Assembly: GCA_963804975.1 (NCBI GenBank)
Contig: CAWDSG010000002.1
Span: 53,554-117,553, forward strand
Reading direction: 5' to 3'
DNA from: an uncultured bacterium
GTDB taxonomy: Bacteria; Patescibacteriota; Minisyncoccia; Phycocordibacterales; GWA1-40-21
DNA length: 64,000 nt
The notes under the pieces are model-generated. The model was not told the DNA's origin. It ran no database searches and saw only the letters and a list, made by a program, of their open reading frames with translations. Shown here piece after piece: positions 10,379 to 16,259 of this stretch; within the stretch, counting starts at the first letter, position 1, and the number at the start of each line of letters is the position of its first letter. Made by a program: the position numbers and the translations under genes.

Positions 10379-10756
10379 ATGGGAAAAGAACAAAAAGTAA
10401 GCAGTAAAGTATTATATCCGGAATTATCTTATAAAATAAACGGCATTTTATTCTCAATTCATAATGAAATGGGTATTTTTGCGAGAGAAAAACAATACGG
10501 AGATTTGCTTGAAGAAAAATTAAATGAAAACAATATAAAATATGAACGCGAAGTAAGAATATCAGACACCGGCGACATTGCTGATTTTATCGTTGAAGAT
10601 CAGATAGTCTTAGAATTAAAATCAGAAAGATTTATAACAAGAGATAATTACAGGCAGATTCAAAACTATCTGCAACAAACAAGATTAAAATTGGGGATTC
10701 TGGCAAATTTCAGAAGCAAGTTTTTAGTTCCAGTTCGTGTTATCCGCATAGATTAA
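10379..10756 (+). CDS. GxxExxY-family protein (PD-(D/E)xK-like)
   Basis: Family pattern seen: N-terminal HNEMGIFAREKQYGDLLEEKL, IVLELKSE, and C-terminal KLGILANFRSKFLVPVRVI. Confidence 0.7.
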   Translation: MGKEQKVSSKVLYPELSYKINGILFSIHNEMGIFAREKQYGDLLEEKLNENNIKYEREVRISDTGDIADFIVEDQIVLELKSERFITRDNYRQIQNYLQQTRLKLGILANFRSKFLVPVRVIRID

Positions 10757-10814: not shown

Positions 10815-11069
10815 ATGTTTGATATAGGAAAATATCTGGAAAAATTCAAAAAATTCTCGCAGTCGCGGGATTTTTTGAGAAATTCCGTCGCCGAAGCGAT
10901 AAAAGAAATCTGCAATATTGAAATTGATCCGAAAAAAATTGAAGTGAAAAATGGAATTGTCAGAATCAGCGAAAAACCGGTGATAAAAACAGAAATTTTC
11001 CTGAAAAAATCAAAAATTCTGAATAATTTAAAAGAAAAGAAACACATTGACATTTTTGACATTATCTGA
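10815..11069 (+). CDS. small hypothetical protein (possibly DUF721/DciA-like)
   Basis: 84 aa, basic, near dnaA/dnaN. Only loose resemblance to DciA-type proteins. Confidence 0.3.
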   Translation: MFDIGKYLEKFKKFSQSRDFLRNSVAEAIKEICNIEIDPKKIEVKNGIVRISEKPVIKTEIFLKKSKILNNLKEKKHIDIFDII

Positions 11070-11150
11070 TATCATTTCAATTGGAGTAAACATTCGTGTT
11101 TATCGCTTGCTCTCTTTAAAATAAAATAAGAAAAAGAAAGGGGACTGGTT

Positions 11151-11942
11151 ATGAAAAATAACTCTGCCCAAAAGAAGGAAATCCGTCTGGCGACTGCCGG
11201 ACAGATAAAGGATCTCTGCGCTGTAGCGGTGCAAGGAATCCCGGCAAAAGTTGCTTTTGGAGATGCCGAAGCCGCACTTCTCAAAAAAGAGCGGTTGGTG
11301 AAGCATATTCAAAACTTTTTTCGCCAATTACCAACCGAATTACCTAGGAATCTCGCCGAAGCCCTTGCTGAATCCGAAGCGTTTACCAGGGAGTGTTTCG
11401 GTTTGAAAAACATTCCTTCGCTGTCCAAGCTTTTTGTTTTGCCGGAAAAACTGCCGTACGATGTTTTCGCGGCTTTTGTTCCCGCCGGCGCGGATTACCG
11501 CGATTGCGTAAATGCGATGAAAAAAGCCAGGAAGGGTCTCGCTGTTTACGAAGAGGAGGATGTGAACAAGTACTCCAATTCGCAAGCGGTGGACAAATCA
11601 CGTCTTTATCTCATTGAGCGTTCAGAACGCCCAAATAAAGACACGATGGGTTTGTCTCCGGATAAACTCATTGAAACGGGGAAAACTTTTCTCGGCCTCG
11701 GTCCGTACGCTGTTGTGATGGGACAATACCACATGGCAACGGGGAAATACTTGGATCTGGAAACATGGACTTGGTTTCCAAAAGATCGGCTTCTGGATAA
11801 GAATGGTTGCAAGACTGGCGAGGTCGCGAACGGCGACTGGCGCCCGGACGGCACGAGGGTCGGGTTCGGCTGGAGCATCGCGGCGGGCGAGTACGCCTGC
11901 GCCGGTGCTCGCTTGGCAACCGAGGTTCCCCTTAAATCTTAA
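11151..11942 (+). CDS. DGR target (variable) protein; C-terminal 33 codons form the variable region
   Basis: 263 aa with no signal peptide. GC is clearly elevated versus flanks. The C-terminus GEVANGDWRPDGTRVGFGWSIAAGEYACAGARL is encoded by the VR. Confidence 0.75.
   Translation: MKNNSAQKKEIRLATAGQIKDLCAVAVQGIPAKVAFGDAEAALLKKERLVKHIQNFFRQLPTELPRNLAEALAESEAFTRECFGLKNIPSLSKLFVLPEKLPYDVFAAFVPAGADYRDCVNAMKKARKGLAVYEEEDVNKYSNSQAVDKSRLYLIERSERPNKDTMGLSPDKLIETGKTFLGLGPYAVVMGQYHMATGKYLDLETWTWFPKDRLLDKNGCKTGEVANGDWRPDGTRVGFGWSIAAGEYACAGARLATEVPLKS
11817..11916 (+). repeat. DGR variable repeat (VR)
   Basis: A 100-bp copy of the TR. There are 16 mismatches, all at positions where the TR has A (A to G/C/T). 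A 16-bp GC-rich shared 3' end gccggtgctcgcttgg is IMH-like. Confidence 0.85.
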
Positions 11943-11964
11943 AACTTTTTTTCTTAATCCTTAC

Positions 11965-12006
11965 ACTGCATTGAATGGCCCCCATAGCGTTCAATGCAGT
12001 TTTTTT
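11965..12006 (+). terminator. perfect 11-bp stem hairpin plus T-run immediately downstream of VR (DGR homing hairpin and/or terminator)
   Basis: Stem actgcattgaa ... ttcaatgcagt with a 14-nt loop tggcccccatagcg, then tttttt. Confidence 0.6.
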
Positions 12007-12182
12007 ATATAATAAAAACGGCTGTTAAGCTGGTTTTGCAAAAACAAAACGACAGTTTGCCAAAATATAGAAATTGCTTGCTATTTTTTATACTAAGCTC
12101 GCAAAACCTCGGGAAAAACGCAGAAAATTTTGTAAAAGATTTTCGGTGATATGGACGAAAGATGGCAATAAAGCTTCCCAGT

Positions 12183-12282
12183 GGCAAGGTCGCGAACGGC
12201 AACTGGAACCCGGACAGCACGAAGGTCAGGTTCAACTGGAACAACGCGGCGAACGAGAACGACTACGCCGGTGCTCGCTTGG
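12183..12282 (+). repeat. DGR template repeat (TR), rich in AAC codons
   Basis: About 27 adenines, including roughly nine AAC triplets in the VR reading frame. Lies within a 54-codon micro-ORF (12162-12326). Followed by the hairpin aaaggagc..gctccttt. Confidence 0.85.
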
Positions 12283-12303
12283 AAATTTCTCGCAAAAAGG
12301 AGC

Positions 12304-12609
12304 TTAACTGGCTCCTTTTGTGTTGATATAATTGAGCCATCCATTAGCCATTTTTGAAATTTCTATAATCTGGTTTGAAAGATGAAGATAACAATTTTCC
12401 CCAATAATACAAAGCTCTTTTTCCGTTCTTATGAGATTTTGCAAAATATTGATTTTAATTCTCAATAATTCCAAGGATTCTTTCTTGGCAATTTTTGATT
12501 TTAAAGCTGATTCTATGGCAAGAGACAGTATTTCAATGCAAGTTTTTTCCACAAGAGCGTGTATTCCCAATTTATCTCTTTTGGAAAGTTTTTGGCTCAA
12601 GACATACAA
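12304..12609 (-). CDS. avd: Avd-like four-helix-bundle protein (23S rRNA intervening-sequence protein family) - DGR accessory variability determinant candidate
   Basis: C-terminal ...LELLRIKINILQNLIRTEKELCIIGENCYLHLSNQIIEISKMANGWLNY matches the conserved helix 3-4 pattern of the family (EExxxLxxxLEEIxKMLNGLI). Positioned between the TR and the RT but on the opposite strand. Confidence 0.6.
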   Translation of the reverse strand: MYVLSQKLSKRDKLGIHALVEKTCIEILSLAIESALKSKIAKKESLELLRIKINILQNLIRTEKELCIIGENCYLHLSNQIIEISKMANGWLNYINTKGAS

Positions 12610-12637
12610 ATCTTTATATAGTATTCTTATTTTATGA

Positions 12638-13684
12638 ATGATAGGAATATTGTCTGCGGGGGGGGGGCGTCATAGTTTGAATTTTTATGATGTAATATCT
12701 GTTAAAAATTTATTTGAAGCTTGGCAAAATTTTTCTAAAAACAAAAAATCAAAAACGGAAGTTGCCAAGTTTGAATTGAATCTTGAAGAAAATCTGTTTA
12801 ACTTACATCAAGAATTGATGGCCGAAATCTGGAATCCGAAACCATATATAAAATTTTCTGTTTGCGACCCGAAACTCCGCGAAATACACAAAGCCGATAT
12901 AAGAGATATGATTTTATATCAAGTTGTGTACCAATCATTATACCAGATTTTTGACCTGGTATTTATTTTTGATTCATATTCATCAAGAAAAACAAAAGGA
13001 ACTCATGCGGGAGTTGAAAGATTTGTGGAATTTGCGAGAAAAGTTTCAAAGAATTACAAAACCGGCGGATATGCTTTGAAATGCGACATTAGAAAATTTT
13101 TTGATTCAATAAACCATAAAATATTGATTGGTTTTATAAGAAAGAAAATTACTGACGAAAAACTTATGGCAATTATTGAGAAAATAATATATTCATTTGA
13201 AAAAAGTCCGGGCAATGGTTTGCCGCTCGGCAATGTCACAAGCCAGCTTTTTTCAAATATTTATCTCAATGAACTTGACCAATTTATCAAACACAAACTG
13301 AAAGCGAAATATTACATAAGATATTGCGATGATTTTGTGATTTTAAGCGACACTTTGGAGTTTTTAGATTTTTGCTTATTAAAAATTAAAGATTTTTGTT
13401 CAAAACACCTTTTAATAGAGCTTCATCCAAATAAAATCCATATACAAAAACTTAATTCGGGAACTGATTTTCTAGGATATGTTTGCTTGCCTCACAGAAA
13501 AGTTTTGAGAACAAAGACCAAAAACAGGATTTTGAAGAAAATAAACAAATTAAAAATAGATTTTAATGATAGAAAAATAGATCAAGAAAAATTGGAGCAA
13601 ACTATGCCATCTTATTTGGGAATGTTAAAACATTGCAATGGCGAGAAGATAAAGGAACAAATAGAAAGAATTTTTACTGATTAA
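12638..13684 (+). CDS. DGR-type reverse transcriptase
   Basis: RT motifs are present, with the YxDD box as YIRYCDDFVIL. The DGR-specific LGNVTSQ sits where group II intron RTs have QGxxxSP. A G10 homopolymer runs through codons 7-10, so the exact 5' end is uncertain. Confidence 0.9.
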   Translation: MIGILSAGGGRHSLNFYDVISVKNLFEAWQNFSKNKKSKTEVAKFELNLEENLFNLHQELMAEIWNPKPYIKFSVCDPKLREIHKADIRDMILYQVVYQSLYQIFDLVFIFDSYSSRKTKGTHAGVERFVEFARKVSKNYKTGGYALKCDIRKFFDSINHKILIGFIRKKITDEKLMAIIEKIIYSFEKSPGNGLPLGNVTSQLFSNIYLNELDQFIKHKLKAKYYIRYCDDFVILSDTLEFLDFCLLKIKDFCSKHLLIELHPNKIHIQKLNSGTDFLGYVCLPHRKVLRTKTKNRILKKINKLKIDFNDRKIDQEKLEQTMPSYLGMLKHCNGEKIKEQIERIFTD

Positions 13685-16259
13685 TCGTAATCGGTATCGT
13701 AATATCTCCCTCGTTGTACACACTGTCATACACCACAACTTTCAATTGGTTTGTTCCTATAATGAGCGAATTGACCGAAGATGGCACGAAATTAAGCACA
13801 AACGGCGAAGTATCAGAAGTGCCTATCAATTGGTCGTTTAAGTAGAAATTTGCCCGCGCCGCAGGGTAGTTTGAATTTATGGAGGGCGATACTGTAATCC
13901 TGCTGTTCTGGCTATACTGCGCAGTTGAATTCGGCGATAAAATATTTATTTTCGGTTTGTTTGCCGCGGTATGTACATCATCATAAGTGGTTGGTTTTTG
14001 AACAACGGGCTGTGGATGTGCCGAAATCCATTGTTGCACTCCATATTCCCAAGAATTAAATTGTGCGTCATCGCTCGGATTTGAAGGCGGAGGGCCGTTT
14101 GGATTTGATTTGTCCACCCAATACAAAACAGAATGGATATTCGGCACAGCCACTTCTTCTTTTGTTTCAGGCGGAGTCGTATCGGTCGCGAGCTTGCCTG
14201 AAATTTTGTCTATAAAATACGTATCATCGCCCTGCCAGATTCCGCGGAGCACCGGTTTGAGTGTCTGATCAACCGGCTCTGGTTTTATAAAATCATCCAC
14301 AGATGTGCTTGCAAGCGCGGCGGCCATCAACTGTTGCCAAAGCGGCGCGATAATCAGCCCCGCGACATTTTTTACCATCGGCGTGTTATCATTATTTCCC
14401 GCCCATGCTCCCACAGCGATATCGGGCGTGTAGCCGAATGTCCATACGTCTTTATAATCGTTCGTAGTCCCCGTCTTTGCGGCAACTTGCCTTCCAGAAA
14501 ACATGAAAACGGAGTTTGTCCCGTATTCCGGCGCCTTGGCCGCATTGTCCGACAGAACATCATTCATAATATCCGCAATATTCTGTTGTAAAACTTGCTG
14601 GCTGTTCGATGTGTACTGCTCGACAATATTCCCGTTTGCGCCTTCAACTGAAAGAATGCCCGTGTAAGGATTTCTTACGCCTTCATTTGCAAAAACTCCA
14701 TAAGCGCTTGTCATATCAAGAAGCGAAACCTCTCCTCCGCCGAGAACAAGCGTAAGGCCGTATTGATTCGGATCGTCCGAAAGAGTCGTGATTCCCATTA
14801 CCTTTGCCGTATTGAGCGAATCTTGCTGTCCCGCGAGATAAAAAAGCTTGATGGAGGGAATATTTAAAGACAAATCAATCGCGGTTCGGAGCGTTACAGG
14901 GCCGCGATACAATCCGTCAAAATCCTGAGGCATATAGCATGCCGTGGACGATGATATTACCGTATCGGGATTGATCTGCTGGCCTTCCGGTGTGCATGTG
15001 CTTTGAAATTCCGTCGGGACATCAAAAAGAACGGTGTCCGGAGTATATCCTTTTTCAAAAGCGGTCGCATAGATGAAAGGTTTGAATGTCGAGCCCGGCT
15101 GTCTGTGGGCCAAAGCCACATTAAACTGTCCGTCAGTCGTTGTGGAAAAATAATCGCTTGAACCTATCATGGCGAGAATTTGCCCGGTTTTCGGATCAAT
15201 GGCGACGGCGGCCGTGTTTGACGCGTTGAAATTCTTTTCAAGCGTAGGCATATAATTTTTTATTATCTCTTCCATTTTTGCCTGCAGATTATAATCAAGC
15301 GTTGTGACGACTTTGTACCCGTTTTGCATAACGGCATCTTCGCCATATTTACCCACAAGATATTGTTTGATGAATTGCACGAAATGCGGAGCGAGGATAC
15401 CGGTCGGAGACGGGGGCAGAAACTGCACATTTTCTTTTATCGCTCCATCGTACTCTTCCTGCGTGATAAATTTATTGTCAAGCATTTTTTGCAGGACCAG
15501 ATTTTTTCGCGCATCAAGCTCGTTTTTATTTTGCCCGTATGGAGAATAATATGTCGGAGCGTTTGCTATGGCGGCGATGTACGCGGCCTGCGCAAGCGTG
15601 ACGGATGCCGAACTTGTGCCGAAAAACATCTGGCTTGCTTCCTCAACGCCGTAAATATTTCCGCCGTAAGGATTTTCGTTGAGATAAATCGAAAGTATAT
15701 CGTTCTTACTCATTGTTTTTTCAAGCTCAATCGAAAGCACCCATTCTTTCAATTTTCTTGAAATCGTTTTCTCGTTTGTCAGAAGAGAATTTTTGATGAC
15801 CTGCTGGGTTATTGTCGAGCCACCCTGGCTGAAACTGCCGGAAAGGATATCGGCGAATATTGAGCGTATGATGGAAGTTACTTTTATTCCGCCATGCTGG
15901 TAAAAACCGGGATCTTCTATCGCAATCGTCGCATTTTTCAGGTTCTGGCCGATTTCATCAAAAGGCATTACAGTCCTTTTTTCGCCTTGATGGATATCAT
16001 AAAGCAACACGGTGCCTGTCCTGTCATATATTTTTGTGGACTGGGTTACTTTTATGGCGCTAAATGAAGAAAGGTCCGGCAGTTTGAAAGTGGAGACCCA
16101 AAGGGCAAGCAAACCTGACCCGACCAAAAACAAAAAAATCAAACCCCAGAAAATTTTTTTCCTCGTGCTGATTTTTGTCGAAAGGGCGTCTTTGCGCAAA
16201 GAATGGACGACTCTTTTTGTTTTTGCCTTTATATCCGATATTTCCAACATAGTAGGCAA
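13674..16259 (-). CDS. bifunctional class A penicillin-binding protein (glycosyltransferase + transpeptidase) with C-terminal extension
   Basis: GT motifs EDPGFYQHGGI and GGSTITQQ, TP motif STFKPF, and an N-terminal TM anchor. The roughly 150-aa C-terminal extension is of unknown function. Confidence 0.9.
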   Translation of the reverse strand: MPTMLEISDIKAKTKRVVHSLRKDALSTKISTRKKIFWGLIFLFLVGSGLLALWVSTFKLPDLSSFSAIKVTQSTKIYDRTGTVLLYDIHQGEKRTVMPFDEIGQNLKNATIAIEDPGFYQHGGIKVTSIIRSIFADILSGSFSQGGSTITQQVIKNSLLTNEKTISRKLKEWVLSIELEKTMSKNDILSIYLNENPYGGNIYGVEEASQMFFGTSSASVTLAQAAYIAAIANAPTYYSPYGQNKNELDARKNLVLQKMLDNKFITQEEYDGAIKENVQFLPPSPTGILAPHFVQFIKQYLVGKYGEDAVMQNGYKVVTTLDYNLQAKMEEIIKNYMPTLEKNFNASNTAAVAIDPKTGQILAMIGSSDYFSTTTDGQFNVALAHRQPGSTFKPFIYATAFEKGYTPDTVLFDVPTEFQSTCTPEGQQINPDTVISSSTACYMPQDFDGLYRGPVTLRTAIDLSLNIPSIKLFYLAGQQDSLNTAKVMGITTLSDDPNQYGLTLVLGGGEVSLLDMTSAYGVFANEGVRNPYTGILSVEGANGNIVEQYTSNSQQVLQQNIADIMNDVLSDNAAKAPEYGTNSVFMFSGRQVAAKTGTTNDYKDVWTFGYTPDIAVGAWAGNNDNTPMVKNVAGLIIAPLWQQLMAAALASTSVDDFIKPEPVDQTLKPVLRGIWQGDDTYFIDKISGKLATDTTPPETKEEVAVPNIHSVLYWVDKSNPNGPPPSNPSDDAQFNSWEYGVQQWISAHPQPVVQKPTTYDDVHTAANKPKINILSPNSTAQYSQNSRITVSPSINSNYPAARANFYLNDQLIGTSDTSPFVLNFVPSSVNSLIIGTNQLKVVVYDSVYNEGDITIPITINQ

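Follow-up and report, generated by a model that had tools for sequence, protein, structure and literature searches.

Contig CAWDSG010000002.1 of an uncultured patescibacterium (assembly GCA_963804975.1) carries a diversity-generating retroelement (DGR) in which a run of ten G lies inside the overlapping 5' ends of two genes, the reverse transcriptase (RT) gene on the plus strand and avd on the minus strand. All positions refer to the window, i.e. the complete 64 kb stretch of this contig that was analysed. The tract is conserved in the DGRs of related Patescibacteria (the Candidate Phyla Radiation, CPR), its length differs between near-identical genomes, and the reading frames that it joins are scattered over all three phases across lineages. 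The tract is probably a hypermutable contingency tract which gates RT and Avd together. We infer that it switches in the DNA within populations and that the switching controls the activity of the DGR. With slightly less assurance we also lean towards a clade-wide locus of the Patescibacteria, at which one poly(G.C) tract heritably and reversibly switches RT and Avd and places hypermutation under stochastic second-order control.

The tract and the overlap of RT and avd

The window sequence confirmed the ten consecutive G (G10, Table 1). In the RT open reading frame (ORF) that starts at ATG 12638 the run consists of the third base of codon 7 (GCG, Ala) and codons 8-10 (GGG GGG GGG), in agreement with a first-pass annotation of this DNA. 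The tract codes for Gly-Gly-Gly in RT and would code for Pro-Pro-Pro in Avd. It is the only run of at least seven G or C in the window; the second-longest G runs are two G6, and C runs of six or more do not occur in the 64 kb. By chance we would expect between 0.006 (independent and identically distributed bases) and 0.02 (first-order Markov model) G runs of at least ten in the window. The genome had initially been put at about 35% GC, and the figure measured for the window is 39.0%, with 28-32% in the region of RT and avd. Across the long ORFs of the window GGG accounts for 9.8% of the Gly codons. We also considered a pairing of the G run with a C-rich partner at the end of the template repeat (TR) or at the initiation of mutagenic homing (IMH) site. 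This was ruled out by the lack of a C run of at least six in the window.

The 5' ends of RT (plus strand) and avd (minus strand) share about 40 nt, and within the shared segment the codons of the two genes are aligned antisense to each other. The conserved start of RT, 'ATG AAT AAT', is the reverse complement of the Avd residues I-I-H. On the minus strand adjoining the tract we found in every locus an open Avd frame of ~115-120 codons with a conserved N-terminal region, for which the consensus reads ..P-[IV]-[IV]-H-K-I-R-I-L-H-K-D-[IL]-Y..K-L-S-K-R-D-K-L-G. The location of the tract inside the 5' end of RT, as first annotated, is therefore correct for RT and incomplete as a description, since the 5' end of avd on the opposite strand holds the tract as well. 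Given the geometry of the overlap, RT and avd are displaced equally by any gain or loss of bases in the tract. The equal frame offsets of RT and Avd follow from the codon-aligned antisense arrangement by arithmetic and are not independent evidence. If the conserved ATGs are used as starts, the transcripts of RT and avd must run towards each other across the overlap. The conserved block upstream of RT was also considered as a structured RNA or a promoter, which was ruled out when the block proved to encode helix 1 of Avd on the other strand.

At the assembled length neither of the two conserved start codons is in frame with its gene. Translation from ATG 12634 yields MNDRNIVCGGGAS followed by a stop at G10, whereas at G9 or G12 this ATG is in frame and yields MNDRNIVCGGG(G)RHSLNFYDVIS. 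The Avd ATG (12673-12671, minus strand) is likewise out of frame at C10, where it yields MTPPPRRQYSYHS and a stop, and in frame at C9 or C12, where it yields MTPPP(P)ADNIPIIHKIRILYKDLYVLSQKLSKRDKLG... At G10 the avd frame is blocked by a TGA (12672-12670, minus strand) which abuts the tract on the 5' side of avd. The sole canonical avd start left is TTG 12609, which gives a protein of 101 aa without the start of helix 1. The called RT ORF begins at ATG 12638, four bases past the conserved RT ATG; this second ATG is found in some lineages only. The profile scores of Avd differ between the two states. The assembled Avd-like ORF (12304-12609, minus strand) matched PF22296 (bAvd) with 37.3 bits over profile positions 15-106, which is under the Pfam cut-off of 40, whereas the in-phase C9 Avd of 122 aa scored 42.2 bits over positions 3-106 and passed the curated cut-off. 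In one G9 relative (L100) the called avd has 120 aa and opens with ATG ACG CCC CCC CCC at exactly the conserved Avd ATG. A promoter-like pair, CAGACA-16-TAAAAT, runs on the minus strand from 12656 to 12629 and begins right beside the tract. Judged by its motifs, it could drive a transcript for the truncated Avd only.

We propose the following mechanism for a contingency tract at this site. Slipped-strand mispairing during replication would alter the tract length at high frequency, and the gain or loss of one G.C pair would move both genes by an equal step out of register with their starts. With lengths from a single class modulo 3, in the window G9 or G12, RT and Avd would both be produced at full length and the DGR would be ON. 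At other lengths such as G10 Avd would be truncated, RT would depend on a non-conserved start and the DGR would be OFF or strongly attenuated. The outcome would be a heritable, reversible and stochastic ON/OFF switch of targeted hypermutation. In the Bordetella system RT and Avd are both required for cDNA synthesis, so a single tract could be enough to switch the DGR.

Tract lengths and reading frames among relatives

We surveyed 80 species-level genome loci and 80 metagenome loci, a sample among the matches listed. Lineages were defined as clusters at 97% nucleotide identity, and counts of them are not independent in the phylogenetic sense. To assign the Avd frame we took the longest open frame and inspected its motifs, with a check against Pfam for three sequences. 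The N-termini of the RT homologues show the motif 'GGG(R/H)H', which at the DNA level is a nucleotide homopolymer. A G run of at least six was present at the homologous site in 162 of 175 Patescibacteria DGR loci with the RT 5' end on the contig. Across 136 lineages the tract lengths span 6-14 nt with a mode of 9-10: we counted 6 nt in 4 lineages, 7 nt in 10, 8 nt in 12, 9 nt in 47, 10 nt in 47, 11 nt in 10, 12 nt in 3, 13 nt in 2 and 14 nt in one. A uniform G10 among relatives had been named at the outset as the result that would speak against a switch; what we observed instead is this spread of lengths and a G13 variant of the same locus. In 550 kb of flanking DNA there are only four G/C runs of at least seven, the longest of which is 8. 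We found no G/C run of at least six near the start in any of 79 phage DGR RT loci used as an outgroup (33-45% identity); these phage RTs begin with M-K-R-H-G-N-L-F. In the RT bodies of related loci GGG makes up 18.7% of the Gly codons. A motif of the protein only was ruled out as an explanation for 'GGG', given that the codons are nearly always GGG though GGG represents 10-19% of Gly codons, and that lineages without a tract encode other residues there.

An Avd frame could be recognised in 125 lineages, of which 28 are in phase, 65 have one extra base (+1 phase) and 32 have two (+2 phase). Both ATGs are in frame in all 28 in-phase lineages. Among the 97 out-of-phase lineages there is an in-frame ATG upstream of the tract for RT in 16 and for Avd in 6. 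A latent Avd ATG is nevertheless present beyond the tract in 125/125 lineages, and a latent RT ATG at the conserved position in 121/125. When the tract is absent or at most 6 nt long 10 of 11 lineages are in phase, compared to 24 of 121 with a tract of at least 7 nt (Fisher p = 4e-6), which ties the out-of-phase state to the slippery run. The RTs of lineages with no tract or a short one begin with MNN...GH and their Avds with M(T)...P-x-[IV]-H. Among loci whose tract is absent or broken and whose Avd can be recognised, only the metagenome locus L159 is out of phase. Its tract is interrupted (G5-A-G3) about 20 nt upstream of the RT anchor and it is in the +2 phase; it may be a locked-OFF or decaying copy.

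The coding sequence of the overlap carries a further signal. The overlap of out-of-phase lineages contains 156 Leu/Ser codons of Avd, and TTA, CTA and TCA account for none of them, compared to 30% elsewhere in Avd (p = 2e-23). These three codons in the Avd overlap would create a stop in the RT far-side frame. The reverse comparison gave the same picture: 0 of 47 RT Leu/Ser-type codons in the overlap are stop-antisense codons, compared to 27% elsewhere (p = 9e-7). Selection holds the far-side start segments open even in out-of-phase lineages.

Differences in tract length were also observed between near-identical genomes. Locus L090 (Logan assembly of ERR10755942) has G13 where the window has G10, with 0 mismatches over 2641 nt. 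The identical stretch takes in the target gene, the variable repeat (VR), TR and avd, and the VR itself shows 0 mismatches. In a Taylorbacteria lineage the tract is G9 (in phase) in 2 assemblies and G10 (+1) in 8, and these assemblies have 1-2 substitutions per 3.2 kb (99.9% identity). In a lineage from Hainich groundwater we found G9 (+2) in 7 assemblies and G10 (in phase) in 3; in the G10 assemblies avd is called through the tract at 124-125 aa. A G9/G10 pair of this lineage has 0 mismatches over 2369 nt, and the coverage of the ENA contigs is 29-107x. Both lengths occur on each of two Hainich haplotypes that differ at 7 sites, for which recurrent or reversible switching and recombination are both candidate causes. 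A fourth lineage with a length difference has G9 in L025 and G10 in L111. In addition, proteins clustered at 90% identity include copies of one RT with the N-terminus translated in more than one frame.

Two of the Taylorbacteria assemblies, both G10 and thus in the +1 phase, differ by about 20 VR substitutions at positions of TR adenines. This adenine-site turnover at a +1 consensus means that the Taylorbacteria DGR was recently active and that out-of-phase loci are not dead. Compared with L091, both L092 and L095 also differ outside the VR: 5' of it, their target genes have the same block of 17 substitutions, together with two 3-nt indels (L091 positions 458-586 and 633-724). The block could result from recombination or represent a second diversified segment.

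Some individual loci show other irregularities at or near the tract. Of 25 metagenome loci with a truncated upstream flank, 7 have their contig end at most 60 nt from the tract (binomial p = 0.002), namely L014, L108, L111, L113, L127, L155 and L175, and L014 starts inside the run. Runs of N stand beside the tract in L044 and L063. The clustering of contig ends is suggestive and fits either read-level length heterogeneity or poor coverage of poly-G. In P0136, a JGI member of the P0013 cluster, the RT N-terminus reads MNNKGCAGGGGVIVVIFDVIN, translated from the conserved ATG through a longer tract. The RT frame is regained about 7 codons later, which would indicate a second-site indel that compensates RT only and destroys the RH motif. 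In L099 (ENA ERZ5996431) the RT gene is joined, ~140 nt into the coding region, to unrelated sequence lying upstream of position ~1496 with a 607-aa ORF on the minus strand. This is either a rearrangement that deleted the tract, avd and TR or a chimeric contig.

Alternative explanations

The first-pass annotation had suggested that the tract acts as a phase-variation switch of the DGR, with G10 as the state in which RT is in frame. The first part agrees with our results, as tract lengths vary, most loci are frame-shifted and near-identical assemblies differ at the tract. The second part has to be revised: the conserved ATG 12634 needs G9 or G12 to be in frame, the called ORF relies on the lineage-specific ATG 12638, and G10 is probably not the canonical ON state. 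Several observations weigh against a contingency tract or limit how fast it could act. In the closest JGI lineage the tract is G7 in 7 of 7 assemblies, and most lineages with multiple samples show one tract length. Switching is therefore not so fast that all consensus sequences would be scrambled. There is an excess of the +1 phase (65 of 125 lineages, chi-square p = 5e-5), and +1 is the commonest state among lineages with an in-phase length of 9 and also among those with one of 8 (Fisher p = 4e-6). A simple ON/OFF model does not predict this excess, which could point to directional recoding. Furthermore, RT may not be off at G10 since the in-frame ATG 12638 remains in the window.

The main rival is recoding at the level of the RNA or the ribosome, which is compatible with DNA phase variation and does not exclude it. 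RNA polymerase would stutter on G9-10/C9-10, or the ribosome would make a +1 shift on GGG-G or CCC-C, and a small fraction of RT and Avd would be produced from a tract of any length. The tract would then be a constitutive attenuator of both proteins and its DNA length would drift near-neutrally. We consider this rather unlikely, while giving it more weight than the remaining alternatives. Runs of C or G are the classical places for +1 frameshifting (suppressors sufA/sufB and sufD), and ribosomes stall on Pro-Pro-Pro. Recoding would account for the presence of all three phases in intact and conserved loci, for the far-side starts that are kept open in out-of-phase lineages and for the VR turnover in a lineage with a +1 consensus. 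The enrichment of +1 at whatever absolute length is what we would expect if one slippage direction were favoured. However, programmed recoding normally shows a fixed frame offset, and the split into 28, 65 and 32 lineages is not compatible with one. The 22% of lineages that are in phase and the in-phase lineages without a tract imply that high expression is tolerated, the DNA length itself changes between near-identical genomes, and no stimulatory element was identified.

It is very unlikely that the tract is a plain coding feature. In this case Gly3 and Pro3 would be N-terminal linkers, the homopolymer a by-product of the constraint on two strands, and other starts would be used in out-of-phase loci. 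By sequence logic the codon-aligned antisense arrangement does force GGG opposite CCC if Gly and Pro are both wanted. An in-frame ATG, GTG or TTG for RT was found upstream of the tract in 37 of 65 +1 lineages, and the window itself has ATG 12638. On the other hand, lineages without the tract encode e.g. SGH, EGGGH or GGKIIGQDSH at this site, so that Gly3/Pro3 is not required. For Avd an in-frame canonical start beyond the tract was present in only 19 of 97 out-of-phase lineages, and we found no conserved internal start before the conserved helix 1. Moreover, tract lengths range from 6 to 14, and 78% of lineages have a length that departs from a multiple of 3 relative to the flanks.

A sequencing or assembly artefact, under which all true genomes would be in phase and the RT of the window would start at TTG 12677, is hardly credible: homopolymers are error-prone, some of the metagenome-assembled genomes are Nanopore assemblies and contig ends and scaffold gaps cluster at the tract as described above, but the same lengths recur across independent assemblies and assemblers (8 with G10, 7 with G7 and 7 with G9), contigs of 29-107x are among them, one assembler yields both lengths, and 78% of the consensus sequences would have to be miscalled. 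The recurrence of lengths likewise speaks against the initial suggestion that the tract marks an assembly error. The downstream TTG which had been put forward together with it as the true RT start is poorly supported. Most relatives have TGT, AGT, AAT or other such codons in place of TTG 12677, and an RT begun at this point would lack the RH motif. This motif aligns to residues 4-5 of the Bordetella phage RT (8ub7_A) and to the 'MKRH' N-terminus of the 79 phage RTs. A role of the G run as a Shine-Dalgarno-like element serving TTG 12677 was rejected on the same grounds: most relatives lack a start codon at this position, and conservation of the upstream RH extends to the phage RTs.

We made one observation on the geometry around this TTG. 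The short ORF that begins at the conserved ATG stops, in L001 and L003 of the two closest lineages, at a TGA sharing bases with the TTG which gene callers use (gtTTGAat). In the window its stop is TAG 12673-12675, which leaves one base between it and TTG 12677. This arrangement could allow termination-reinitiation and produce an RT without the RH motif; the TTG exists in few lineages only.

The surrounding element and known systems

The surroundings of the G10 tract are those of a DGR, with RT, a TR/VR pair, a target gene and Avd all present (Table 1). TR and VR are 84% identical and 17 of 17 mismatches fall on TR adenines; the VR lies within the last 127 nt of the ORF 11151-11942. The RT matched the profile RVT_1 (E 3.7e-20), and its best solved relative is bRT 8ub7_A (E 3.4e-35), with an alignment that starts from the N-terminal RH motif. 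The RT translation shows the motifs LGNVTSQ and YCDD, and its homologues carry the names Paceibacterota and Patescibacteria. A sequence search of the extended Avd against the PDB gave no meaningful match, and an Rfam search of 11000-13800 gave no match.

Table 1. Coordinates of the DGR features around the G10 tract (positions in the window)
Feature	Position	Strand	Description
DGR target gene	11151..11942	+	263 aa, VR at 3' end, no Pfam match
VR	11816..11919	+	from repeat comparison with TR
TR	12182..12285	+	from repeat comparison with VR
Avd reading frame	12304..12669	-	begins just beyond the tract and stays open up to its stop codon at 12304-12306
RT/avd coding overlap	12634..12673	both	head-to-head, codon-aligned antisense, tract mid-way
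Family-conserved RT start ATG	12634..12636	+	reverse complement of the Avd His codon in P-I-I-H
RT ORF as assembled	12638..13684	+	348 aa; begins at lineage-specific second ATG, in frame at G10 and G13
Poly(G.C) tract	12658..12667	both	G10 on the RT strand, C10 on the avd strand; from the sequence
Family-conserved Avd start ATG	12671..12673	-	reverse complement of the RT His12 codon CAT
In-frame TTG, alternative RT start	12677..12679	+	proposed by the first-pass annotation and by gene callers in the two closest lineages; not conserved
Predicted N-terminal sequences			MNDRNIVCGGGRHS... and MTPPPADNIPIIHK...

Other signals were noticed in and around the cassette. A hairpin GGAGC-TTAACTG-GCTCC at 12299-12319 stands directly after TR at the 3' end of avd and is flanked by an A-run and TTTT. 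From its sequence it looks like a predicted bidirectional terminator for the TR RNA and avd. A terminator scan did not flag this hairpin, probably since the A/T flanks lengthen the stem. Inside the 3' end of avd there is a plus-strand promoter-like pair TTAACT-17-TATAAT (12304-12332) with 10 of 12 matches. The GC content changes along the element, with 45-55% in the target gene (11100-12000) compared to 28-32% in the avd and RT genes (12300-13700). Just 5' of the DGR cassette a protein of the PD-(D/E)XK_3 family (E 7e-20) is encoded at 10379-10756.

To our knowledge prokaryotes have no natural system for the targeted hypermutation of proteins other than DGRs, which are particularly frequent in CPR/Patescibacteria. 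In the literature on DGRs we found no report of a homopolymer, frameshift, phase variation or avd-RT overlap, in a search to which the 2017 CPR/DPANN survey did not belong and where a prior mention is possible. A single homopolymer in a codon-aligned head-to-head overlap which gates two genes via both strands appears undescribed, and it is also new that the gated system is itself a mutagenesis machine. If the proposed switch is real, it would be a minimal regulator that needs no extra protein and suits tiny genomes. It would confine mutagenesis to a subpopulation and would explain the large number of intact-looking but inactive DGRs in surveys. Gene callers systematically misannotate these loci: RTs are called from downstream codons, and Avd calls have 58-101 aa or are missing. 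Avd is consequently under-detected in CPR DGRs. The tract is only ~740 nt from the VR, so that tract phase and VR diversity can be scored on one long read or read pair.

The prototype for comparison is the DGR of the Bordetella phage BPP-1 (mtd-avd-TR-brt). The two share a homologous RT, an Avd-family protein (PF22296), TR/VR mismatches restricted to adenines and a VR at the 3' end of the target gene. In contrast to BPP-1, avd is inverted here and overlaps RT head-to-head by ~40 nt with the poly(G.C) tract inside. The RT has an N-terminal extension of ~10 residues before RH, and the tract was found in 0 of the 79 phage loci. Slippage recoding, as known from insertion sequence (IS) elements, dnaX, endosymbiont poly-A and +1 shifts at CCC-C/GGG-G, resembles the present locus in that a homopolymer links an upstream start to a mostly out-of-frame ORF, with +1 as the commonest phase. 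It differs in that the frame offset here is not fixed as it is in programmed frameshifting or slippage, both strands would need to be recoded, and the DNA length varies between near-identical genomes.

One hypervariable repeat that serves two genes has a precedent. At hifA/hifB of Haemophilus influenzae a single TA repeat between two divergent genes controls both via the spacing of the promoter -35 and -10 boxes. The tract described here lies inside both coding regions and would act on the reading frame, not on transcription. It does not sit between a -35 and a -10 box as in the promoter-spacer type (hif, opc, porA), and the sole nearby promoter-like match (12656 to 12629, minus strand) adjoins the tract without spanning it. 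The closest likeness in form is to the poly-G/C contingency loci of Campylobacter jejuni, Neisseria, Haemophilus and Helicobacter. In both cases a G/C homopolymer with a mode of 9-10 is located near the 5' end of an ORF in an AT-rich genome without other such runs, its length is polymorphic in near-identical genomes, and ON and OFF frames are found across strains. The locus thus shows what is expected of simple sequence repeat (SSR) contingency loci: an ORF with a homopolymer of at least seven in its 5' part, a depletion of other runs of this kind in the genome, a length that differs among near-identical genomes, and length changes which move the ORF in and out of the frame of its start codon. 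Unlike those loci, one tract serves two divergent overlapping ORFs, and the genes it would control form a mutagenesis machine instead of a surface structure. The hosts are environmental Patescibacteria, and the tract is conserved in a clade with RTs that are only ~50% identical.

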